Shown piece by piece: positions 1 to 10,601 of a stretch of DNA of 64,000 nucleotides. A program made the translations under genes and the position numbers. This DNA comes from a virus, in the IMG/VR virus record IMGVR_UViG_3300036715_003363. One strand, written 5' to 3'. The first letter of the stretch is position 1; each line of letters starts with the position of its first letter. A model generated the notes under the pieces. That model was not told the origin of the DNA. It did no database searches and saw only the letters and a program-made list of their open reading frames with translations.

Positions 1-49
1 ATCTGACAGAGCTTTATCTTATCGATGTATGCAGAGATGAAGATTCTAA

Positions 50-78
50 TTGCCGTTCCATGGAAGCCTATCCATAAT
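50..78 (+). promoter_or_regulatory. Sigma70-like promoter, leaderless (ATG at 85)
   Basis: TTGCCG-N17-CATAAT-N6-ATG. Confidence 0.7.
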
Positions 79-84
79 AAAATC

Positions 85-306
85 ATGAAGATTAAAACAA
101 TCATCCATACTGATACTACTGCGGCGGTCATTGACGCTATCATTGCTGAGAGTATTGATGATCCTGCAGGTACCGTAGCCATTAATGCTTTAAACCGCTG
201 TACAGAGATCTTTCAAGGCACTGCGACGATCTCAGAGGTTAAGCAGTTCTTCCTTAATAGGTATACGTTCATGGCACTGCCCAATGCCGGTAAATTCTTA
301 TGCTAG
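85..306 (+). pseudogene. MKIKT family copy 1, frameshift-truncated
   Basis: Start moved to MKIKT (85); lacks the 8-bp GATTCTTA present in copies 2 and 4, stops at 304-306; out-of-frame homology continues to ~383. Confidence 0.75.
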
Positions 307-383
307 TAATCTAAAAGATGTTGAACTGCATATTGCATTCTAGGTCTCCTTATATTGTCTCTGGCATATATTTGAATTACTAA

Positions 384-412
384 TTGCCGTTCCATGGAAG
401 CCTATCCATAAT
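384..412 (+). promoter_or_regulatory. Sigma70-like promoter, leaderless (ATG at 419)
   Basis: TTGCCG-N17-CATAAT-N6-ATG, identical to 50-84. Confidence 0.7.
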
Positions 413-418
413 AAAATC

Positions 419-787
419 ATGAAGATTAAAACAGCCACTACAATCATCTATACTAATACTACTGAGATCTATAGGAACTTTACTGAGGTGATCATTGATG
501 ATATCATTACTGAGAGTATTGATGATCCTGCAGGTACCGTAGCCATTAATGCTTTAAACTGCTGTACAAGGATCTTTCAAGGCACTGCGACGATCTCAGA
601 GGTTTATCAGTTCTTTCACGATGGGTATACGCTCATGGCACTGCCTAATGCCGATAAATTCTTAGATTCTTATACCGGTTCTCTAGATGATGTTGAACTG
701 CATATTGCATTCCCAGAATCTCGCTCTAGAGATCCTTATATCGTCCCTGGCAGATATTTGAATGGTCGTACTATAACAATAGCATGA
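419..787 (+). CDS. MKIKT family copy 2, hypothetical protein
   Basis: Intact 122-aa ORF, paralog of copies 4 and 5. Confidence 0.85.
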   Translation: MKIKTATTIIYTNTTEIYRNFTEVIIDDIITESIDDPAGTVAINALNCCTRIFQGTATISEVYQFFHDGYTLMALPNADKFLDSYTGSLDDVELHIAFPESRSRDPYIVPGRYLNGRTITIA

Positions 788-1038
788 AGATTAAAACAGT
801 CATCTATACTAATACTACTGAGATCTATAGGAACTTTACTGCGGCGGTCATTGATGCTATCATTGCTGAGAGTATTGATGATCCTGCAGGGACAGAGTTC
901 ATCGATGCTTTAAACCGCTGTACAGAGATCTTACGAGGTGTTGCAACGGACTCAGAGGTTTATCAGTTCTTCCTTAATAGGTATACGCTCATGGCACTGC
1001 CCAATGCCGGTAAATTCTTATACCGGTTCTCTAGATGA
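784..1038 (+). pseudogene. MKIKT family copy 3, frameshift-truncated
   Basis: AAATTCTTA-TACCGG versus AAATTCTTAGATTCTTATACCGG in copy 2: 8-bp deletion between ATTCTTA direct repeats; homology continues out of frame to ~1117. Confidence 0.8.
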
Positions 1039-1117
1039 TATTGAACTGCATATTACATTCCCGGCAGCTCATAATAAAACTCCTTATATCGTCCCTGGCA
1101 GATATTTGAATTACTAA

Positions 1118-1146
1118 TTGCCGTTCCTTTTAATCCGCACCATAAT
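1118..1146 (+). promoter_or_regulatory. Sigma70-like promoter, leaderless (ATG at 1153)
   Basis: TTGCCG-N17-CATAAT-N6-ATG. Confidence 0.7.
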
Positions 1147-1152
1147 AATAGT

Positions 1153-1506
1153 ATGAAAATTAAAACAACTACAAAGGCCGTTACAAAGACTATCATTGAA
1201 GTTGCTTCTGAGGAGTTCTATATGAACTTTACTGAGGCGGTCGTTGCTGAGAGTATTGATGATCAAACAGGTGCAAAGTTCGTTGATGCTTTAATTACAT
1301 GCTCAAAGATCGTTCAAGGCGACGCGACGAGCTCAGAGGTTAAGCAGTTCTTCCTTAATAGGTATACGTTCATGGCACTGCCCAATGTTGGTGGTTTCTT
1401 AGATTCTTATACCGGTTCTCTAGATGATGTTGAACTGCATATTACATTCTCAGAAGCTCACAAGCGAGGTTCTTATATCATCCCTGGCAGATATTTGAAA
1501 TTCTAA
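1153..1506 (+). CDS. MKIKT family copy 4, hypothetical protein
   Basis: Intact 117-aa paralog. Confidence 0.85.
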   Translation: MKIKTTTKAVTKTIIEVASEEFYMNFTEAVVAESIDDQTGAKFVDALITCSKIVQGDATSSEVKQFFLNRYTFMALPNVGGFLDSYTGSLDDVELHITFSEAHKRGSYIIPGRYLKF

Positions 1507-1535
1507 TTGTCGTTCCTTTTAATCCGCACCATAAT
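1507..1535 (+). promoter_or_regulatory. Sigma70-like promoter, leaderless (ATG at 1542)
   Basis: TTGTCG-N17-CATAAT-N6-ATG. Confidence 0.7.
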
Positions 1536-1541
1536 AATAGT

Positions 1542-1907
1542 ATGAAAATTAAAACAGCCAAGACGACAATCACGAAGACGATCATTGAAGTTACTTCAGC
1601 TGAGTTCTTTATGGACTTTACTGAAGCTATCGTCTATCGTGCCGTTGCTGATAATATTGATGATCGAATGAGTTTCGTAGCCATTGATGCTTTAAACCGC
1701 GGCACAAGTATCTTTCAAGGAACTGCCACGCCGACGGAGGTGAATCGATTCTTCCGCGATGGGTATACACTCATGGCAATACCTGGTGCAACTGAGTTCT
1801 TTAATAACTATACTGGTAATCTAGAGAATGTTGAAATGCATATTACATTCCCGGCGTCTCACAAGCGAGAACCTTATATTGTCTCTGGCATATATTCAAA
1901 CTACTAA
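1542..1907 (+). CDS. MKIKT family copy 5, hypothetical protein
   Basis: Intact 121-aa, most divergent paralog. Confidence 0.85.
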   Translation: MKIKTAKTTITKTIIEVTSAEFFMDFTEAIVYRAVADNIDDRMSFVAIDALNRGTSIFQGTATPTEVNRFFRDGYTLMAIPGATEFFNNYTGNLENVEMHITFPASHKREPYIVSGIYSNY

Positions 1908-1964
1908 TCAACCTGATGCTGATATATTTACAGTTTAAGACTCACTGAAACCCACTCTTTTAAT

Positions 1965-2069
1965 ATGGAATACAACAAACACGAATCAGAATCAGATCAT
2001 TTTGTCCTTGGACTAATCATCGGCGCGAGCATTGCTAACGTTATTGCATATATCATTATAATACTATAA
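1965..2069 (+). CDS. Small single-pass membrane peptide (34 aa)
   Basis: Hand translation MEYNKHESESDHFVLGLIIGASIANVIAYIIIIL; below ORF-track cutoff. Confidence 0.5.
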   Translation: MEYNKHESESDHFVLGLIIGASIANVIAYIIIIL

Positions 2070-2077
2070 CCTATTTT

Positions 2078-2215
2078 ATGATTCTTTATATACTAACTAT
2101 TATCTGCGCTACTATCATAAGTTTCTTTCTGATAACCAGTGGCTCGGCTGTACTAACTTTTGCAATGCTAGCTTTCTGCATTGCTGTCATGATCTTTCTG
2201 ATAAATGATTTATAG
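2078..2215 (+). CDS. Small two-helix membrane peptide (45 aa)
   Basis: Hand translation MILYILTIICATIISFFLITSGSAVLTFAMLAFCIAVMIFLINDL; stop overlaps next ATG at 2205. Confidence 0.55.
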   Translation: MILYILTIICATIISFFLITSGSAVLTFAMLAFCIAVMIFLINDL

Positions 2216-2648
2216 CAATAAAAACGCGGTTGAATACTACGAGAAGTTCAACAAGCTTCCACACCCGAAGATCAAATGCTCGCTGTGTAGCGCAATGACA
2301 ACATGCTTTGGCGATAATCTCCGTAGTCGCATTAAGCTTGCCGGGGGATTGCTTGAGCTCTTAGATAGCTTCAAGTGCCGGCGTTGTCGCACCGGAGCGT
2401 CGCCGATGAAGCCCGTAAAGGCTGCCCGGGTGACGAAGGCTACCAATAAGATAAAGGACTGTGACATTCCTAAGATGAGGCCCTTTGTACCGCTCAATAT
2501 GTATTTGCGTGATTTACCTGATCTAGCTTCCTCGATATCTACCACATCATGCCTGGCACCGCAACTCTATCTGAATAACGGTAGGAATTGTCGAGGATGT
2601 ACGTTTCATTCAATGTGTAATAACCCTCTTCGTAAACAAGTAGCATAA
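2205..2648 (+). CDS. Cys-rich putative zinc-binding protein, paralog of 13662-14321 and 4462-4821
   Basis: CSLC, CRRC and C-terminal SC..P.L.LNNG.NC.GC....C motif. Confidence 0.75.
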   Translation: MIYSNKNAVEYYEKFNKLPHPKIKCSLCSAMTTCFGDNLRSRIKLAGGLLELLDSFKCRRCRTGASPMKPVKAARVTKATNKIKDCDIPKMRPFVPLNMYLRDLPDLASSISTTSCLAPQLYLNNGRNCRGCTFHSMCNNPLRKQVA

Positions 2649-2753
2649 CCGCAGAAAACCCCGGGACCCCTAAAGCTCCCAAGCGCATACATACAATGAA
2701 TCGCAATATACAACCCAGTAAATCAGATAGTCCGAGCTATGGAAACTTTCTTA

Positions 2754-2782
2754 TTGATTGTGCCTTGAGAATCTCTTATACT
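2754..2782 (+). promoter_or_regulatory. Sigma70-like promoter ahead of a 13-codon mini-ORF (MKIKNKTVQHNAI, 2789-2830)
   Basis: TTGATT-N17-TATACT-N6-ATG. Confidence 0.55.
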
Positions 2783-2859
2783 GATCGTATGAAAATTAAG
2801 AACAAAACAGTACAGCACAACGCAATCTAACCCAGGTATTCCTACAACACTGATATATT

Positions 2860-3105
2860 ATGTATAAAAATATGATTAACTTCTACGACCAAATCCTATC
2901 GCTGCCAATTGATACGCGCACGGAGTGCTTTAAAATTGCTGAGCGTGCCATGTCTGATATGTACCCAGTGTACAGTACTGATGATGTCTGGCAGTATATT
3001 TTCTACCGATGCTACAATCTTCATCCAGATGACTTCCTTAGCTGGGCAGGACTTCTTCAAGACCACAATCTCTTTGATCAGAGTCTTCTAAAAATACAAG
3101 ATTGA
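2860..3105 (+). CDS. Hypothetical protein
   Basis: 81-aa ORF in gene-dense plus-strand run. Confidence 0.6.
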   Translation: MYKNMINFYDQILSLPIDTRTECFKIAERAMSDMYPVYSTDDVWQYIFYRCYNLHPDDFLSWAGLLQDHNLFDQSLLKIQD

Positions 3106-3139
3106 CTTTCCTCAAGAATCAAGATACCATCTATAGATA

Positions 3140-3301
3140 ATGAAATACCTTTTAAGACTATTAGGATACGAAATCGTAGAGCATAAGCCCATCTCTATTC
3201 TAGCTCATATGCACAGAACTACTCATCAGAGCTGGTTGAAGTCCTTGCAGAACTCAAATCGAATAAGAGACTATCAGGTTAACCTTTATATCAATGAATA
3301 A
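3140..3301 (+). CDS. Hypothetical 53-aa protein
   Basis: Hand translation MKYLLRLLGYEIVEHK...NLYINE; preceded by TTGACT-N17-TACCAT (3102-3130). Confidence 0.45.
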   Translation: MKYLLRLLGYEIVEHKPISILAHMHRTTHQSWLKSLQNSNRIRDYQVNLYINE

Positions 3302-3436
3302 ACGAATAGTTATTATTTGTCTAGTATGCTGTATAATCGCAAGTATACCTCATATTATTAACCATTGTCGTAATTCTTTTACTGATCGATATTCTTTATA
3401 TGTCAGCTTAGATTAGCACTCTCCCAACCTCAAATA

Positions 3437-4162
3437 ATGAAAACACAACATAGAAAACAAACCGAGGGCTTTTCCCTCATTGAGGTCGTTATTGGCCTCG
3501 TCGTCGCTGCCGTCTGCGTATTCTTTCTCCAGCGATTGCTTCCCAGCAGCCTGAGAGTTTCCGCGAATGCCACTGATCAGACAGCTGCCAGTAGTATGAT
3601 GACGGCAATTGCACAGGATCTCCGCAATACGCCTGCTGGCTCCTCCATCTCGCCGGGATTTGGAATCACGCTCCCAGTGAATACTACAAACTCCTCAGCA
3701 CTCATCTCCACCAACCTCTACCTTTCGACAGATGGTCTAGGTGTTTTGTCACCTTCGCAGGCACGATATGCGGCAACGATATGGATGAGCAATGCCGCCT
3801 CAGCAACGGTCACCTCGCTCACCACAGCACGGATTAGGGTTACTTGGCCTGCAAGTGCATATGCGAGCAACGCTCTAGGTTCCGTGGAGACCATCACCTC
3901 GTTTAATCGACAGTTGCAGCTTAACGGAGCGTATGTATCAAGTAAAGGAGCCGGGGCTTCTCCTATGAGGACGGGCAGTGACATTGATGGTCATGACAAT
4001 GGGAAGGGTAATAACTATCAAAATGAAGGAGTAGGTAATGGTGGAAGTACTGCTGGGTGCAATATGTGCAGTGGCTGCGGCGGTGGGTGTGGCGGCAATT
4101 GCAGTAGCCATTGTCCTCAAGGTATGGTAACAAGAGATCATGGCAATGGACAGGACAGATAA
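3437..4162 (+). CDS. Type IV pilin/pseudopilin-like protein (Verru_Chthon cassette B-like) with Gly/Cys-rich tail
   Basis: Class III signal G|FSLIEVV plus hydrophobic helix; LLP.SL....A..QTAA...IA.DLR.TP and RVTWPA motifs resemble verrucomicrobial cassette protein B. Confidence 0.8.
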   Translation: MKTQHRKQTEGFSLIEVVIGLVVAAVCVFFLQRLLPSSLRVSANATDQTAASSMMTAIAQDLRNTPAGSSISPGFGITLPVNTTNSSALISTNLYLSTDGLGVLSPSQARYAATIWMSNAASATVTSLTTARIRVTWPASAYASNALGSVETITSFNRQLQLNGAYVSSKGAGASPMRTGSDIDGHDNGKGNNYQNEGVGNGGSTAGCNMCSGCGGGCGGNCSSHCPQGMVTRDHGNGQDR

Positions 4163-4367
4163 AAGAGATAGCAGATCAAGGAGTATAAGCAGAGTTACTC
4201 TGATCGAACTGCTCGTAGTGGCTCTCTTGGTGATTTTGCTGAGCCAGATTATCAATCAGGCTTCTCAGACTAGTTCGCTCACTCCAGAACAGCAGGAGCA
4301 GGAGCTTCTTAATACTATCTATTATGATATGGTAACAAACGCTTGCAGCTCTTATAGACATCAATGA
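4140..4367 (+). CDS. Truncated pseudopilin-like protein
   Basis: R-VTLIELLVV..LL.ILL.QII.QAS resembles a prepilin N-terminal helix but lacks the G|F cleavage site; no globular domain. Confidence 0.55.
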   Translation: MAMDRTDKRDSRSRSISRVTLIELLVVALLVILLSQIINQASQTSSLTPEQQEQELLNTIYYDMVTNACSSYRHQ

Positions 4368-4375
4368 GAATGTTC

Positions 4376-4404
4376 TTGCGTTCCTTTCATTGAGGAGCCA
4401 TAAT
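4376..4404 (+). promoter_or_regulatory. Sigma70-like promoter followed by 5' hairpin and A-rich leader
   Basis: TTGCGT-N17-CATAAT; GAACAATC-GAAG-GATTGTTC hairpin from 4409; A/C-rich run to ATG 4462. Confidence 0.6.
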
Positions 4405-4461
4405 TTATGAACAATCGAAGGATTGTTCTAAACAAAATAAACAAAAACAAAACAAAATACA

Positions 4462-4821
4462 ATGAAATCAGTAATCCCACAAGAAGTCACTCAATATCAG
4501 GCTGCCTACTTTGAGACCTTTGGTACTCTCCCTACTCCAGTCATTGAGTGTAATATCACTGGCCAGGCAGTTACTTGCTTTGGCACGAACCTCGCCAAAA
4601 AGGTCGAAATGGCTGGCTCCATTGAGAAGCTCTTGGAGACGTTCGTCGGCCGCGGCAACGCTCCGATGCTTGCAAAGCCAGCGAAGCCAGCGAAGACTCC
4701 AGCGAAGCCAGTGAAGGCTCCATCAAAGGCTCCATCAAAGCCAGCGAAGAAGACTCCAAAGGGTAAAGTAGTGGCGACTCTCTCAGAGGCTAAGGTCGGA
4801 GATCTGGTCACACTTGAGTAG
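4462..4821 (+). CDS. Putative DNA-binding protein with Pro/Ala/Lys-rich histone H1-like tail
   Basis: N-domain similar to 2205-2648 (TCFG.NL..K...AG....LL..F); tail AKPAKPAKTPAKPVKAPSKAPSKPAKK from CCAGCGAAG and GGCTCCATCAAA repeats. Confidence 0.75.
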   Translation: MKSVIPQEVTQYQAAYFETFGTLPTPVIECNITGQAVTCFGTNLAKKVEMAGSIEKLLETFVGRGNAPMLAKPAKPAKTPAKPVKAPSKAPSKPAKKTPKGKVVATLSEAKVGDLVTLE

Positions 4822-4826
4822 GTTCT

Positions 4827-4910
4827 CCAATCGGGCTCTAATCCTGCCGCTCATCCAAGAAGACAATGAAGTTTGAGCAACTAGAGGAAAGCAGGATTAG
4901 AGCTGATTGG
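4827..4910 (+). other. Long imperfect stem-loop, candidate structured RNA or terminator
   Basis: GCTCTAATCCTGC (4835-4847) pairs perfectly with GCAGGATTAGAGC (4891-4903); extended by CCAATCG/TGATTGG; inner GCTCA/TGAGC stem. Confidence 0.6.
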
Positions 4911-5028
4911 TTCTGTGTTCATGACGATGCGATGATGTGCAGTTGTCCTTGAGAGACGCGGTTGTCCCGGGTGATTCGCAGAGTATTGAGTGGATAATGC
5001 GAAAGTTAGAGTAAGAAGCGGATTTTAG

Positions 5029-5056
5029 TTGACTTCCAGGCCCGGCACTCTATTAT
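5029..5056 (+). promoter_or_regulatory. Sigma70-like promoter, leaderless (ATG at 5063)
   Basis: TTGACT-N16-TATTAT-N6-ATG. Confidence 0.6.
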
Positions 5057-5062
5057 TAATAT

Positions 5063-5440
5063 ATGAGCCTTTACATATACCTTATGGGAGAATCTGTAAC
5101 AACAGATTGCGAATGTATTGATTGCGGGCATAAGCATTCAAGAACATCCAGAGAGAAGTTGTTCCGAGCAAACATTACTCATAACTTATCATTAATGGCC
5201 TCAGAGGCTGGATTATATCTTCCTCTTTGGCATCCAGAGAATCTCATGAGCCAGAAGGCAAAGGATTTAATCCCAGAGGTTGAGAAAGGACTTCAAAGTT
5301 TACTACTCTCTCCGGAGTTCTATAAAACATTTAACGATGAAAACGGCTGGGGAGTGTACGAACACTTTGTTTCTTTTGTTGAGAGATGCCTAGAGGCTTT
5401 TAAAGAATTCCCAGAGGCAACTGTGGAGACATCAACTTAA
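5063..5440 (+). CDS. Conserved phage hypothetical protein
   Basis: ANITHNL..MA.EAG.Y..LW.PE and NGWG.YE.FV.FV motifs recalled from a widespread phage family. Confidence 0.75.
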   Translation: MSLYIYLMGESVTTDCECIDCGHKHSRTSREKLFRANITHNLSLMASEAGLYLPLWHPENLMSQKAKDLIPEVEKGLQSLLLSPEFYKTFNDENGWGVYEHFVSFVERCLEAFKEFPEATVETST

Positions 5441-5444
5441 TAAT

Positions 5445-5759
5445 ATGAGTGTATATCATACTCTAACACCCAAGGAGGTCCAACTACTCTCTTCTTTTTC
5501 ATATAAGAAGAGTGATTCACTTACACATTTCGAAGATGTTAAGCGGAACGAAGTGTTGGACGAAGAGTTGAGTGAGCGGTGTATGATCTGCAACAAGGAG
5601 AAAGGGCAGCATCGCGCCGGTGTCCCTCATTCTTGTCCTCTACCAAGTTTTAACAGTGTTTGGAGTGGCTGGTCATCAGAAAATGAATTTGTATCTTTGC
5701 TGAGTACTCTAAAGAAAGAGACTGCGGAAACGTTTAAAGATATTGTCAATGACTTATAA
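5445..5759 (+). CDS. Hypothetical protein with CxxC and C-terminal TFxDIxxL tag
   Basis: CMIC..H..C; ends TAETFKDIVNDL. Confidence 0.75.
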   Translation: MSVYHTLTPKEVQLLSSFSYKKSDSLTHFEDVKRNEVLDEELSERCMICNKEKGQHRAGVPHSCPLPSFNSVWSGWSSENEFVSLLSTLKKETAETFKDIVNDL

Positions 5760-5794
5760 ATTGAAAATACTATTGAACTATGATAATTAATGAT

Positions 5795-6016
5795 ATGGCT
5801 AAACCAACAGAAACAGAACTACTCATTGCTGAGATTGAAAGATTAACTAAAAACAGATCAGAACTGATCGCTGCATATGAAGATCTTGTAAGTCTTCTCG
5901 GCGCTGAGATTCAAGAAACTGCTCCTCTTGCTTTTCAGGCAATGAACGGCAAATGGAAGTCTCGCAGAGTACATGCCGGTTTTGCGGCGCGCGAGAGAGT
6001 TGATAGACTCAAGTAA
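5795..6016 (+). CDS. Hypothetical coiled-coil protein
   Basis: Probable start MAKP; TAATG coupling to next gene. Confidence 0.65.
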   Translation: MAKPTETELLIAEIERLTKNRSELIAAYEDLVSLLGAEIQETAPLAFQAMNGKWKSRRVHAGFAARERVDRLK

Positions 6017-6249
6017 TGACTGATTCTAAACAAATTTGTATGGGGTGCGGACATGAAAGAGATATGCACTACGTAGTGCACTGCACTGTGCACAGTAATA
6101 TGAACGGCACAGATTATACAATTGTATGTCCAAGTGAGAGGGGAGCACTCAAAGCGTTATTTGATACAAGGAACGGCACATTCACACCACGACCAGTTCT
6201 TTCAGACGAGGCAGAGGAAACATTTGGAGATATAATCGATGAGCTCTAA
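6016..6249 (+). CDS. Hypothetical protein with CxxC and C-terminal tag
   Basis: CMGC.H...H; ends LSDEAEETFGDIIDEL. Confidence 0.75.
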   Translation: MTDSKQICMGCGHERDMHYVVHCTVHSNMNGTDYTIVCPSERGALKALFDTRNGTFTPRPVLSDEAEETFGDIIDEL

Positions 6250-6559
6250 CGAATATATTAACGATGAGGAATATAATAAGAGGCTCGATCACTGGAGAGA
6301 CTCTTTAATGGTAGGTGATCGAGTAATTTTTCAGACCAGATACGGACTCAAAGAGGGTACTATACATGACAGTCGAGCTACTCGCTATAAAAATATTAAA
6401 GCTGACCAAAGATATTCTTGGATTAGTATTGATGAGAGTAATTGTGGTTCACCGCCGTTTGTGGCATTTAATTGCTATCCAACAAAGCATGATGAGGTAA
6501 CTCTTAGACTCTCTGCAGGCGCACTAAAAACATTTGGAGATATAATCAATGAACTTTAA
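6239..6559 (+). CDS. Hypothetical protein (possible SH3/KOW-like fold) with C-terminal tag
   Basis: L.VGDRV.F...G...G.I; ends LSAGALKTFGDIINEL. Confidence 0.7.
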   Translation: MSSNEYINDEEYNKRLDHWRDSLMVGDRVIFQTRYGLKEGTIHDSRATRYKNIKADQRYSWISIDESNCGSPPFVAFNCYPTKHDEVTLRLSAGALKTFGDIINEL

Positions 6560-6758
6560 AGTTTTTTTTACTGCACTCATAAAGGACAAGCCGCCCGAAA
6601 AGAATTCGAAGGCTGATGCAGGCTATGTTCCTGTATGTTTAAATGAACAATACTGCAAGGACTGTACAATGTGGAGAGAGCCGAATCAATGCACTGCAGT
6701 TCGCGGATTAATTGAAAGAGAGGCATCTTGCAATTGGTGGAGAAAAGGAGATATATAA
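6549..6758 (+). CDS. HiPIP-like (high-potential iron-sulfur) protein
   Basis: SK.DAGY...QYCKDCTMW..PNQCTAVRG.I...ASCNWW matches HiPIP Y..CxxC..F/W..C..V.G.I...C..W. Confidence 0.65.
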   Translation: MNFKVFFTALIKDKPPEKNSKADAGYVPVCLNEQYCKDCTMWREPNQCTAVRGLIEREASCNWWRKGDI

Positions 6759-6798
6759 TTTTATTGCCGTTCCGTAATAAATATAATATAACCATTAT

Positions 6799-7134
6799 AT
6801 GAAATCAAAAGATCAAACTCTACTCGAAGAAGCATACAAGCGCATTTATGAATCCGCCGGCGAAGTTACATCTGGAGATGGAGGAGAGTATGAAGATTCT
6901 CCTGATATGAGCGCAAAGCGTGATGAACATCTTGAAAAAGCTGAAAACTACATTCACGTTCTTAGAAGCCGCGGATGGAAACAAGCATCAGCTCCCGCAG
7001 AAGGAAAATCAGGTCTTTATAAGTATACAAAAGGTAAGAACGTTGTTTCAATTGAAAAGACTCTTGACGGTAGAGTCTCCGTTGTTATCAATGGAGAGCC
7101 ATTTACCGGTAAAATTAATAAATTAAAAGCCTAA
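6799..7134 (+). CDS. Hypothetical late protein with LLEEAY leader
   Basis: MKSKDQTLLEEAYKRIYE; TAAATA at 6778-6783. Confidence 0.75.
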   Translation: MKSKDQTLLEEAYKRIYESAGEVTSGDGGEYEDSPDMSAKRDEHLEKAENYIHVLRSRGWKQASAPAEGKSGLYKYTKGKNVVSIEKTLDGRVSVVINGEPFTGKINKLKA

Positions 7135-7219
7135 CAATCGTTACGCTTAAACCGGCAGTATTAACATCTATTATGATAATAGATGAATTATAAGAGCACT
7201 TCATTAAATAATATATTCA

Positions 7220-7954
7220 ATGCATCTTCTCCAGGAAATTAATAACATCTACGATATCTACAGATCAATGATATTATTTGAGACAGAGTCGGGTAATAAT
7301 ATCAATGGAATTGATCCAAAGACTTGGGCGAAACTTGAGCTCACCATTCGTCGCTGTAAGTACGCGCTCATGAGGAAGAGTGTCTTTATTGGTAATGTTC
7401 TTGCACGACTTAAGATTTGTTTTACGAATGATATTGATACAATGGCTGTTGATGATTACGGAAACATTTATATTAGCCCGAAGTTTGCTCTTTCAATCTC
7501 TGAGGACGAAGTTACTGCAGTCTTAGCTCATGAAGCGTTCCACATTATTAATATGACTTTCTTTAGAAAGCGTGGAAGAGATCATGAGCTTTGGAACATC
7601 GCAACAGATTATTTGATGAACATGTATCTCCTTCAGGATGGATTTAAACTTCCTGAATGTGGTTGTAACCCAGTTAAAAAAGGTGATCGCTGGGTAATTC
7701 CAGTACTCAGAGGAACGAAAGAGATTAAGGATACGGATATCACAGAACTTTCTGCTGATGATTTATATAATATCTTATATAGTATTGCTGTACCTCGGAA
7801 TAAAGGAGGAGGCGACAGTTCAATTAATGTTGGGGATGTTGTTTACGATGAAACCACTAAAAAATATGGTGTTGTAACGAGCATCAATCCAAAGACTAAC
7901 AAAGTTCAATCACGTGAAATACCTGAATCAGAAGTGGAGAGACATTTAAAATAA
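7220..7954 (+). CDS. Putative metallopeptidase (N-terminal half of DUF2201-like VWA partner)
   Basis: TMAVD.YG.IY, VLAHEAFH (HExxH), WNIATDY.MN. Confidence 0.85.
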   Translation: MHLLQEINNIYDIYRSMILFETESGNNINGIDPKTWAKLELTIRRCKYALMRKSVFIGNVLARLKICFTNDIDTMAVDDYGNIYISPKFALSISEDEVTAVLAHEAFHIINMTFFRKRGRDHELWNIATDYLMNMYLLQDGFKLPECGCNPVKKGDRWVIPVLRGTKEIKDTDITELSADDLYNILYSIAVPRNKGGGDSSINVGDVVYDETTKKYGVVTSINPKTNKVQSREIPESEVERHLK

Positions 7955-8898
7955 TGGAATCAAATTTAACAGATCTTAAGAAAGTTGTTCGAGTCGACGC
8001 CGGCGGTGGCGGTAGAGTAGCTCCAGATAACGTTAAGCCTTGGGGAAAGTCGAGCTCGCCACCGCAGCCCGGTGAGAAGAAGATTACAAAGGGCGGTGAT
8101 ACTCTTGACGATCACTTAGAGGGCGGTGATAAGAAACCAGATGTCCTTGATACTCCGGATGACTCTGATGAATTTAAACCTAGCGACGGCAGTGAAAAAA
8201 CCGAGCAAGAAAAAATTGCAGATATGAAGGAAAAGATTACAGGTGCTCTTCAGGAGGCTGAAAAGGCAAGGGGTAGCGGAGGAGGAGCTCCTCGTTGGTT
8301 TGATAAGAAAATTTTTGCTCCGAAAACAAACTGGAAGAAAGTTCTTCGCGATTATATCACAAAGAGTTCAAAGCATGCTTATGATTGGGGTCGCCCAAAT
8401 AAAAGAGCACTAGCTGCTGGCTATTACGCTCCAAAGAATACAACTTTAAAGAGTGATTTGGAGGCTGTGATTGCCATTGACACTTCTGGGTCCATGACAC
8501 AGCCAGTACTTACAACGTTTGTGAGTGAAATCGTTGGAATTGTTCGCTCAGTTAAAAACGCCAAGCTCACAATTCTTTTGTGGCATGATGAGGTTTACAG
8601 GCAATTCGAAATTGATTCTAGTAAAACTGATTCGGGAATGATTCCATCTGTAATTAACGCCGCCAATCCACAATCCGGCGGCACCAAATTAAGTTGTATT
8701 GATCAATACTTTAAAAAGAACGCAATTAAGACTGATAAATTAAACTTACTAATCCTCACTGACGGACAAGTTGAATCAAATCCAATTCTCCCAAGAACAC
8801 AAAAGAGACCTATTTTCCTTATTAACAGCGACTCCGGAACGGATGAAATGTTAAAGGGAAGGGGTGAAATATACTTTGTAGACATAGGACATAAATAA
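7954..8898 (+). CDS. VWA-domain protein (C-terminal half of DUF2201-like)
   Basis: W.RPN.R, AIDTSGSM (MIDAS DxSxS), GGT, ILTDG. Confidence 0.9.
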   Translation: MESNLTDLKKVVRVDAGGGGRVAPDNVKPWGKSSSPPQPGEKKITKGGDTLDDHLEGGDKKPDVLDTPDDSDEFKPSDGSEKTEQEKIADMKEKITGALQEAEKARGSGGGAPRWFDKKIFAPKTNWKKVLRDYITKSSKHAYDWGRPNKRALAAGYYAPKNTTLKSDLEAVIAIDTSGSMTQPVLTTFVSEIVGIVRSVKNAKLTILLWHDEVYRQFEIDSSKTDSGMIPSVINAANPQSGGTKLSCIDQYFKKNAIKTDKLNLLILTDGQVESNPILPRTQKRPIFLINSDSGTDEMLKGRGEIYFVDIGHK

Positions 8899-8918
8899 AA
8901 TAAATAAACAAACAAACA

Positions 8919-10601
8919 ATGTCAAAGAACAAATCAGAACTTAGAGGTCTTCAGTCCGCGTACTCGCGCGTTAACGAAGCAGACGAATCGTCAAACCCGG
9001 CAATTACCGCAGCTGCTCAACAGATTGCAGGAAAAGTTGAGGCGGGATTAAAGTCAAAGTCAAAGGCTCCCGTCGGACCAGCTAATCCGGAGAAAAAGAA
9101 GATTGGATATTTTGATGTTAAGAATCCTGGATCATGGTCTGCTGTGGAGACTCCTCCCGGTGATGAAGGATTTAACATTGGTACTTGGAACGGCTATAAG
9201 ACACTTGTCATTGACTTAGTTCGCGCCTATCACGCAGATCCAAAAGAGAATCTTCTCGTTTATGGTGATGCAGGTATCGGTAAGAGTGCAACTGTTCTTC
9301 AGGTTTGTAGAAGAATGGCTGAAGAAGAAGGCAAAGAGTTTGCAAATTGGGGTAAGTCTTCTTCTGAAAAGAAGATGGATATGATGAACCATCCTGAGAA
9401 ATATTTTGCATTAGTTGATATTCGTACTGCGGGTCTTGAGCCATCAGATATCGTTGGTATACCAAATATCAATTCAGCAAAGGATTACCTTGAAGTAAAG
9501 CAAGGTCCGTGGATCTATTTTATCTCGCGTCCTGAAGCTTCAGGATTTATTTTCTTTGATGAAATTAACCAGGGATCTGAGCAAGTTCTTAAGGCCTTCT
9601 TTGAGGTTGTGTACGATAAGTCCGCTGCTGGAACTCCGATTTCAGATCGCATGTCTATTGTTGCCGCTGGTAACCTTGGAGGCATTTATAACAATGCCGA
9701 TCTTCCTCCAGCTTTAACAGATCGCTTTACTGCTGGGTTCCTTATTGTTGATAGTCATGCATGGCTTCGTTGGGCTGAGGGAAGCGATGATGGCGATGAT
9801 GATGTTGATTCTCTCGTTGCAAGTACTTCACGACTTGCAACGGTTGCAAAAAATCCTGGATTAAAAGCTCCTCGACTTGATCCTCTTATTCTTGGATTTG
9901 TAAAATCTAATCCAACTGAAAACTTTAACTTTAAGCCAGTTCATGGGCAACCTTCAAACAAGCTTCCAACCCCTCGTAGTATGACTGCGCTTACAAGGTC
10001 TCTACACAAGATTTATCAGGACTACTATCACGTTGAAAACACTGAGGATTTTGCTCATTTTAATGCTGAACCAATGATGCAGGCCATGGCCAGAAAAGCA
10101 GCTCATATCTGCGGCCCTCACTGGGGTAATGCATTTATGGCCTTTGTTGAGCATATGTGGAAACTCACTCTAGAAAAAGTTCTCGGTCACGCTGAGCGTG
10201 GTGAGCTTGGAGCAAAATCTAAAGCATATGTTGGTGCTGGGATGACTCACGCAATCATGCGTTGGCTTACTGAGAAGATTCGTGTAACAGTTGAGAGCAT
10301 TAAGGCTGGAAACCCTGCTAATGCTGAAGATGAAAAGATTCTTACTGCAGTAGCTATTATTTCAAACCATCTTGCAAAAACTGCTCCGGAGTGGCTTGCA
10401 ACTCTCTGGTCAACGTTTAAATATGAAATGCCGGATGAATGGGCTGTGATTCTGGAGTATCTAGAAAGCGGCAAATATGATGATAAAATCAAAAAAGAAT
10501 TTAAGACTACAACACTCAATAAGCTAAAACTTTCAATTACTGATATTAGTAACATTACCTATGACTCAAACGGCCAGCCACAGCTTAAACCTAAAAAATA
10601 A
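8919..10601 (+). CDS. MoxR-like AAA+ ATPase
   Basis: Walker A GDAGIGKS, Walker B IFFDEINQ, AAGN, PPAL.DRF, PTPRS. Confidence 0.9.
   Translation: MSKNKSELRGLQSAYSRVNEADESSNPAITAAAQQIAGKVEAGLKSKSKAPVGPANPEKKKIGYFDVKNPGSWSAVETPPGDEGFNIGTWNGYKTLVIDLVRAYHADPKENLLVYGDAGIGKSATVLQVCRRMAEEEGKEFANWGKSSSEKKMDMMNHPEKYFALVDIRTAGLEPSDIVGIPNINSAKDYLEVKQGPWIYFISRPEASGFIFFDEINQGSEQVLKAFFEVVYDKSAAGTPISDRMSIVAAGNLGGIYNNADLPPALTDRFTAGFLIVDSHAWLRWAEGSDDGDDDVDSLVASTSRLATVAKNPGLKAPRLDPLILGFVKSNPTENFNFKPVHGQPSNKLPTPRSMTALTRSLHKIYQDYYHVENTEDFAHFNAEPMMQAMARKAAHICGPHWGNAFMAFVEHMWKLTLEKVLGHAERGELGAKSKAYVGAGMTHAIMRWLTEKIRVTVESIKAGNPANAEDEKILTAVAIISNHLAKTAPEWLATLWSTFKYEMPDEWAVILEYLESGKYDDKIKKEFKTTTLNKLKLSITDISNITYDSNGQPQLKPKK

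Follow-up and report, generated by a model that had tools for sequence, protein, structure and literature searches.

A minor-pilin gene captured by an uncultured T4-like phage from a Spartobacteria-type donor, and its candidate role as a pilus-tip mimic

Here, an uncultured T4-like phage is described which, judged from its DNA, carries a single captured piece of a Spartobacteria-type chromosome containing a whole minor-pilin gene, called B, and the beginning of the adjacent gene C. According to the comparisons given below, B has been kept intact and under constraint since its capture, while the co-captured stub of C decays. The reading preferred here, to which a probability of roughly 0.55 is given, is that B was taken from such a donor and serves as a mimic of a tip subunit, which by analogy to the prophage-encoded minor pilin P-FimU would give superinfection exclusion.

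The sequence is the IMG/VR record IMGVR_UViG_3300036715_003363, and the whole stretch analysed, called the window, comprises 64,000 nt. It stems from a T4-like phage, as seen from a family B DNA polymerase that matches phrog_262 with E = 3e-179 and is ~34% identical to the gp43 proteins of cyanophages and pelagiphages.

The intact gene B (plus strand, positions 3437-4162) encodes a protein of 241 amino acids and was delineated by its ORF, HMMs, an alignment, an AlphaFold2 model, structure matches and dN/dS. The protein starts with a basic leader (K2, R6, K7), which runs into TEG/FSLIEVV with G11 as Gly-1, F12 as Phe+1 and E16 as Glu+5, and a hydrophobic helix comes next. This is a class III (prepilin) signal. 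The leader covers residues 1-11 with the predicted cleavage after Gly11 (nt 3467-3469), the helix and a beta-sheet domain extend to about residue 160, and the tail (residues 164-241, nt 3926-4159) is disordered and rich in Gly, Asn and Cys. In a six-frame scan of the 64 kb with a relaxed class III motif just two sites were obtained, one in ORF 3437 and one in the following ORF 4140, separated by ~700 bp and equally oriented.

On the level of protein families, B scores narrowly below the general prepilin models, with 19.7 bits for Pfam N_methyl (cut-off 21.2, E = 6e-4) and 16.2 bits for TIGR02532 (cut-off 16.3); its homologues P0002 and P0009 carry PF07963. The top NCBIfam family is TIGR02598, Verru_Chthon cassette protein B, with 27.6 bits (cut-off 51.4, E = 2.8e-6), followed by PilV with 23.9 bits (TIGR02523, cut-off 52.2). 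Proteins A to D of the Verru_Chthon cassette correspond to the NCBIfam families TIGR02600, TIGR02598, TIGR02599 and TIGR02596; a literature search for the term "Verru_Chthon cassette" returned no paper.

The AlphaFold2 model of B, calculated from alignment A1, has a core modeled with confidence, most of residues 11-160 reaching a pLDDT of ~75-88, followed by disorder over residues 164-241. An exhaustive structure alignment against 48,161 chains placed XcpV, GspI and EpsI on top, with Z-scores of 8.5, 7.9 and 7.8. These matches to GspI orthologues align 83-87 of 83-89 residues at an rmsd of 2.8-2.9 Å and a sequence identity of 7-10%, and the next-ranked structures, which are other pilins, reach Z-scores of 5.9 or less. 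A Foldseek search of B against the PDB gave nothing significant (the best match was a chain of the Xcp pseudopilus with E = 0.5), and nothing was found in a sequence profile search of the PDB. Since XcpV, GspI and EpsI rank first with full-length coverage, B is classed as GspI/PilV. Based on the modeling, B is predicted to be the core subunit of the tip complex, with C as its GspJ-class partner and D as the GspH-like protein. B resembles GspI, XcpV and EpsI (PDB 3ci0, 5bw0, 2ret) in that the fold is matched over the whole GspI chain, and the genes resemble gsp operons in that a GspJ-like gene follows directly after B, of which the phage keeps the first ~44 codons only. In contrast to these proteins, B comes from a phage gene, ends in a long disordered tail, and stays below the cut-offs of both the GspI and the PilV HMM at this low identity.

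Among phages, no counterpart was found. B has no match in PHROGs, none in PADLOC and none in BFVD at E <= 0.001, and no second phage carrying B was found in INPHARED (searched with the region and the protein), IMG/VR or BFVD. The neighboring ATPase is likewise without a close relative in IMG/VR, so that a sibling phage was not found by this route either.

The homologues of B are bacterial. A search of 5.8 billion proteins led to 15 of them (alignment A1), none of which lies on a phage-like contig, and scans of genomes and metagenomes led to 18 loci. All 18 fetched loci have a GC content of 0.47-0.56, and the B gene is the sole feature that they have in common with the window. Three loci are located in metagenome-assembled genomes of the class Spartobacteria (Verrucomicrobiota). 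The order D-B-C is present in loci L001, L003 and L004, with a giant gene without family match after C in L001 and L003. In full, L001 reads SecDF, kinase, GlgB, pilin, IlvB, D, B, C and the large protein, L003 reads pilin, D, B, C, a 1371-aa protein without family, GspF and IlvB, and L004 is a contig of 1942 bp with a partial D, B and a partial C. The giant gene (L003:3281-7396, 1371 aa; L001:10262-11983), which has no match in Pfam or NCBIfam, occupies the place expected for cassette protein A or a GspK-type cap.

The bacterial proteins also stay below the cut-offs of their best families. In L001, B reaches 44.3 bits for TIGR02598 (cut-off 51.4) and 21.6 bits for GspI (TIGR01707, cut-off 44.35). 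For the bacterial D and C proteins, the cassette families give 51.7 (D, cut-off 70) and 38.9 (C, cut-off 256.5). The bacterial gene after B matches both TIGR01711 (GspJ) and TIGR02599, and one of its products, P0027, is named "type II secretion system protein J" by JGI, which furthermore assigns the TIGR02598 family to the B homologues P0001, P0004, P0007 and P0015. The likeness to the Verru_Chthon cassette lies in B as the best curated match of the phage protein and in homologues found in Verrucomicrobiota in the order D-B-C, then the giant. It differs in scores that are all below cut-off, in a giant without family and in a low-complexity tail of 60-130 residues added by the subfamily. This tail is present in all members of the close B subfamily, is highly variable and rich in Asp, Gly, Tyr, Cys and His, and is overlapped by the upstream part of the C frame. 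In many B homologues Ala replaces Gly at position -1 (AF[ST]LVEV; P0003, P0007-P0011, P0014, P0015, and loci L002, L007-L009, L016 and L017).

Genomes of the same order contain a match in 56 of 201 cases, often several each, with more than 45% identity only in G001-G003 and G204. The small candidate host genomes (2.2-2.3 Mb) each have a single copy of the B subfamily. G001, G002, G003 and G204, the four host-clade candidates, all possess the prepilin peptidase (Peptidase_A24, above its cut-off).

The closest protein to the phage B is P0001 with 88% identity, and the closest DNA is L004 with ~80%. In the phylogenetic tree, the phage B is nested within the Spartobacteria clade as sister of P0001 (SH-aLRT 90), and this pair groups with L004 (100). 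P0021, a full-length C-type protein of 314 aa that is 86% identical to the C protein of L004, lies on a contig of 28,662 bp. P0001 and P0021 are placed together on the grounds that their contigs have this identical size, and P0001 would therefore belong to a complete bacterial cassette and represent the donor lineage. On these sequence comparisons, the donor lineage is taken to be the one represented by P0001/P0021 and L004. Every one of the closest relatives is either verrucomicrobial or a GC-rich metagenome contig, which upholds the host inference and makes a small-genome member of the Spartobacteria the likely host. An earlier note, made from the letters of this DNA, had proposed captured host-like pilin genes resembling the Verru_Chthon cassette as well as a verrucomicrobial host, and had named an HMM search and a phylogeny as checks. 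The resemblance is upheld by TIGR02598 as the best curated family and by the D-B-C-giant cassettes of Spartobacteria, although TIGR02598, N_methyl and TIGR02532 all remain below their cut-offs. The host assignment agrees with the closest relatives, and the tree places the phage B as the proposal would have it. Beyond the captured fragment, nothing in common was found between the first 20 kb of the window and the four host-clade genomes.

The captured block is marked by a sharp step in GC content. The GC content is 0.30-0.36 at positions 3275-3499, rises to 0.49-0.56 at 3425-4174 and drops to 0.31-0.34 at 4325-4549. The DNA alignment with L004, ~80% identical, runs from ~20 nt before the ATG of B through ~4272, with random similarity beyond both ends. 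Its left end is a ~20 nt piece of the bacterial D-B intergenic spacer (positions 3414-3436, plus strand), as judged from a blastn match to G001 that begins at 3414, from the alignment to L004 and from the rise in GC. Within the block, the overlap of 23 nt between the end of B and the start codon of C is identical in L004 and the phage. Taken together, the sequence argues for a single capture of ~860 bp (window ~3414-4272) from a Spartobacteria-type chromosome, comprising the spacer, the whole of B and ~44 codons of C. Repeats, a target-site duplication and marks of mobile elements were looked for at the junctions and none were seen; the capture is therefore ascribed to illegitimate recombination.

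In GC3, the conserved domain of B lies between L004 and the core of the phage. GC3 is 0.52 for the conserved domain of B (codons 1-172) and 0.48 for the whole of B, in comparison to 0.62 in L004 and 0.27 in 15 core ORFs of the phage. At third positions, GC-to-AT changes relative to L004 number 36 and the opposite changes 19. This suggests a partial amelioration of the captured B, a reading that hinges on the GC3 of the donor.

The second ORF (positions 4140-4367, plus strand, 75 aa) reads SR-VTLIELLVV, a prepilin helix without Gly-1 and without an aromatic residue at +1, in which Glu+5 is kept. Relative to the bacterial C proteins, Gly-1 is replaced by Arg and Tyr/Phe+1 by Val, and 12 nt (4 codons) are deleted in the helix. 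The alignment to L004, the B/C overlap and alignments to nine bacterial C proteins identify this ORF as the first ~44 codons of gene C (positions 4140-4272, plus strand), and BLASTP against the C protein of L002 gives E = 2e-5. The remaining 31 codons are unrelated to C; this tail (positions 4273-4367, plus strand) reads through to the first stop in phage sequence, where the identity to L004 is random (pS 0.92, pN 0.66) and the GC content drops. A homologue of similar length (41-132 aa) was not found among 5.8 billion proteins. The stub is most likely a functionless by-product of the capture. Since its frame is open and the host start codon and a hydrophobic helix are retained, it may still give rise to a small membrane protein. 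What the earlier note had read directly from the letters, namely a class III signal G/FSLIEVV in ORF 3437, a degenerate and head-less prepilin helix in ORF 4140 and a GC content above that of the core genes, is in full agreement with the residues and GC values given above.

Upstream of ORFs 3140, 3294 and 3437, a consensus scan located a sigma-70-like promoter match, TTGACT-17-TACCAT (positions 3102-3130, plus strand), as a candidate start of the transcription unit; the match is weak because the number of such matches equals the expectation from shuffled sequence. The same kind of scan located a terminator-like hairpin with a weak T-run after the stub ORF (positions 4380-4398, plus strand). 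A different motif, TTGCCGTTCC followed by a spacer and (C/T)ATAAT-like bases, is present at 380-418, 1114-1152, 1503-1541 and 6760-6798, where it precedes the MKIKT paralogues and ORF 6799. It resembles a phage-specific early promoter and is absent upstream of ORF 3437. A clear Shine-Dalgarno sequence is seen before none of the 24 start codons inspected on the plus strand at positions 1-9000, the spacers being A/T-rich, which may have to do with how translation works in the host.

Several neighbors of the block were recorded as well. The small-gene block that bears the insert is flanked by two paralogous ORFs (2205-2648 and 4462-4821), which share 37% identity in a stretch of 71 residues (E = 3e-16), have a GC3 of ~0.5 in comparison to 0.27 for the core, and have no family match in Pfam, NCBIfam, PHROGs or PADLOC; the tail of ORF 4462 is rich in Lys, Pro and Ala, and no real host homologue was found for it. 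Two further ORFs in the co-directional block with the pilin, 2078-2215 (45 aa) and 3294-3416 (40 aa), are strongly hydrophobic and of AT-rich phage composition, and could encode small membrane proteins. Further downstream (7220-10601), two separate genes code for DUF2201 proteins, one metallopeptidase-like and the other of DUF2201/VWA type; in PHROGs the family goes under "HNH endonuclease". A MoxR/AAA_5-type ATPase of 560 aa comes next.

Whether selection keeps the phage copy of B was examined from the way it has changed. All 12 family-invariant columns of alignment A1 are kept in the phage B, and the processing site is kept as well. In comparison to L004, dN/dS of B is 0.147 at a dS of 0.74 (172 codons). 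The stub has an equal dS of 0.66-0.72 and a dN/dS of 0.40-0.46. Changes unique to the phage amount to 17 of 239 positions in B and 15 of 44 in the stub (Fisher p = 6e-6), so that the stub changes ~5 times faster, whereas on the L004 lineage the same regions changed at equal rates (22 of 239 and 4 of 44, odds ratio 0.99). Captured together with B and equal to it in dS, the stub is the better control. From this contrast in rates it follows that B is constrained in the phage, less than in bacteria, and that the stub is close to neutral.

The weaker constraint is seen in several ways. Unique changes number 17 in the phage B and 1 in P0001, or 11 and 1 within the conserved domain (p = 0.006), and near-invariant positions are among them (K40R, A42S and Y136T, the last within an otherwise invariant VYWP motif). 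A branch model, for which an own GY94-type implementation was used, gave an omega of 0.24 on the phage branch and 0.09 in the background, a 2.6-fold difference (LRT p = 0.039), but by this codon model alone an omega of 1 on the phage branch was not rejected (p = 0.07, with a wide profile interval of ~0.11-1.3). Partitioned branch lengths display an excess of change at codon positions 1 and 2 in the phage B. Polarisation of the synonymous sites by outgroups was mostly ambiguous because of saturation.

These numbers bear first on the possibility that the block is a neutral passenger, accidentally and recently captured and without any role, in which both ORFs decay and B has simply escaped a stop or frameshift so far. 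The acceleration of amino acid change by 17 to 1, the codon model that does not reject neutrality, a composition that is still foreign, the sloppy capture ending inside the next gene and the isolated position of B among the known phages searched would all fit. Against it, B changes ~5 times slower than the adjacent stub of the same history and dS, the invariant residues and the processing site are all retained, and an ORF of 241 codons is unbroken, including its fragile low-complexity tail. A passenger without role is therefore regarded as unlikely, albeit to be taken seriously.

The preferred reading, a mimic of the pilus tip, takes its mechanism from P-FimU. This FimU-like minor pilin is encoded by prophages, F10-like phages of P. 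aeruginosa, replaces FimU at the tip of the pilus and blocks tip-binding phages (Sztanko et al., Cell Rep 2026; PMC12952977). By analogy, B would be made in the infected cell and inserted into the inner membrane, and the prepilin peptidase of the host would cut it behind Gly11. It would then join the priming (tip) complex of the host pilus or pseudopilus, replacing or accompanying the B subunit of the host. Because the phage B differs from the host protein at ~11% of the positions including Y136T, the tip would be altered or its assembly disturbed, and phages that use the filament, possibly siblings of this phage, would be unable to adsorb. Peptidase_A24 in the four candidate hosts and GspF next to the bacterial cassette count in favor of a host machinery. 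The phage protein, unlike P-FimU, has gained no loops or extensions over that of the host, which counts against this mechanism, as do the accelerated change of the phage B relative to its bacterial sister, near-invariant positions included, and the lack of a second phage with B by which its conservation among phages could be judged.

The likeness to P-FimU consists in a phage-borne copy of a tip or priming minor pilin of the host, with an intact prepilin signal and diverged from the host protein, and in the proposed role of blocking pilus-dependent phages. In contrast to P-FimU, which is FimU/GspH-like, the phage B is of the GspI/PilV class, and the one GspH-like member of the host cassette, D, was left behind in the capture. 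Furthermore, the host belongs to the phylum Verrucomicrobiota, the carrier is T4-like and apparently virulent, no loops or extension were added, a stub of the neighboring gene was co-captured, and the role of the phage B is a predicted one.

A related possibility is that B acts as a poison of assembly. Here, the phage B would bind the GspJ-like or giant partners of the host and form dead-end priming complexes, so that no new filaments are made, and the uncleavable stub may contribute by occupying the peptidase or the platform, as in the model of the earlier note. Y136T in the invariant VYWP motif and the changes at further near-invariant positions are in line with this, and so is the stub, which retains the host ATG, the 23-nt overlap with B, Glu+5 and a hydrophobic helix. 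Over-expression of FimU has been reported to disrupt pilus assembly, and virulent phages carry PilA-like genes, one family of which is truncated to the N-terminal 60 residues (PMC12952977). On the contrary, the near-neutral evolution of the stub, the deletion of 4 codons in its helix, its random tail and the lack of a homologue of similar length speak against the part assigned to it, and for B the in silico data do not separate a poison from a replacement. As a whole, this explanation is held to be distinctly unlikely.

The earlier note had proposed captured pilin mimics that poison or remodel pilus or T2SS assembly and thereby give superinfection exclusion, with the short uncleavable copy acting dominant-negatively. 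Superinfection exclusion is plausible and now has an experimental precedent in P-FimU. A designed pair with a dominant-negative short copy finds no support: the short ORF is the stub of C cut at ~4272, has no homologue of similar length and changes ~5 times faster than B. A bolder variant, in which the uncleavable 75-aa stub was recruited as a small membrane protein that inhibits the processing of prepilins or their assembly, and B of the virulent phage re-fits the tip of a Verrucomicrobia-specific pseudopilus within one lytic cycle, would make a two-part receptor-masking module out of a single sloppy capture and is considered improbable.

T4-like phages of aquatic bacteria often bear auxiliary genes derived from their hosts, such as the photosystem genes of cyanophages. 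B might be a labile tip subunit supplied by the phage to keep pseudopilus-dependent secretion or uptake going after host shut-off. The single copy of B in candidate hosts with genomes of 2.2-2.3 Mb, the position of the cassette beside GspF and the purifying selection on B would suit such a role. However, only one cassette subunit of at least four was kept, faster change that includes conserved positions would not be expected if the gene were a like-for-like spare, and to our knowledge pilins have not been described before as auxiliary metabolic genes. This makes a host-sustaining role very improbable.

An assembly artefact, in which bacterial reads were misjoined into the phage contig, would account for the foreign GC and the matches to bacterial contigs, but was rejected as hardly credible, since the ~860 bp block is internal with phage sequence on either side, the nearest bacterial DNA is only ~80% identical, GC3 has shifted below that of L004 (0.52 vs. 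0.62) with the excess of GC-to-AT third-position changes (36 vs. 19), and lineage-specific indels are present as well as a stub frame that continues into phage sequence. A reading of B as a component of the virion was also considered and rejected.

The most useful practical result is that the captured fragment allows an uncultured large T4-like phage to be assigned, on the basis of sequence, to a concrete host group, the small-genome Spartobacteria. Among phages of Verrucomicrobiota, the literature search turned up a siphovirus as the sole isolate (PMC4642752). If B acts at the tip as preferred here, the phage-encoded pilus-tip strategy would be extended to a new subunit class, a new phylum and a lytic phage. 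The locus also represents a natural experiment, since an intact gene and a truncated neighbor stem from one event and selection on the phage copy can thereby be measured against an internal neutral control. The finding would also point to the Verru_Chthon-type cassette as a surface structure relevant to phages and likely a phage receptor.
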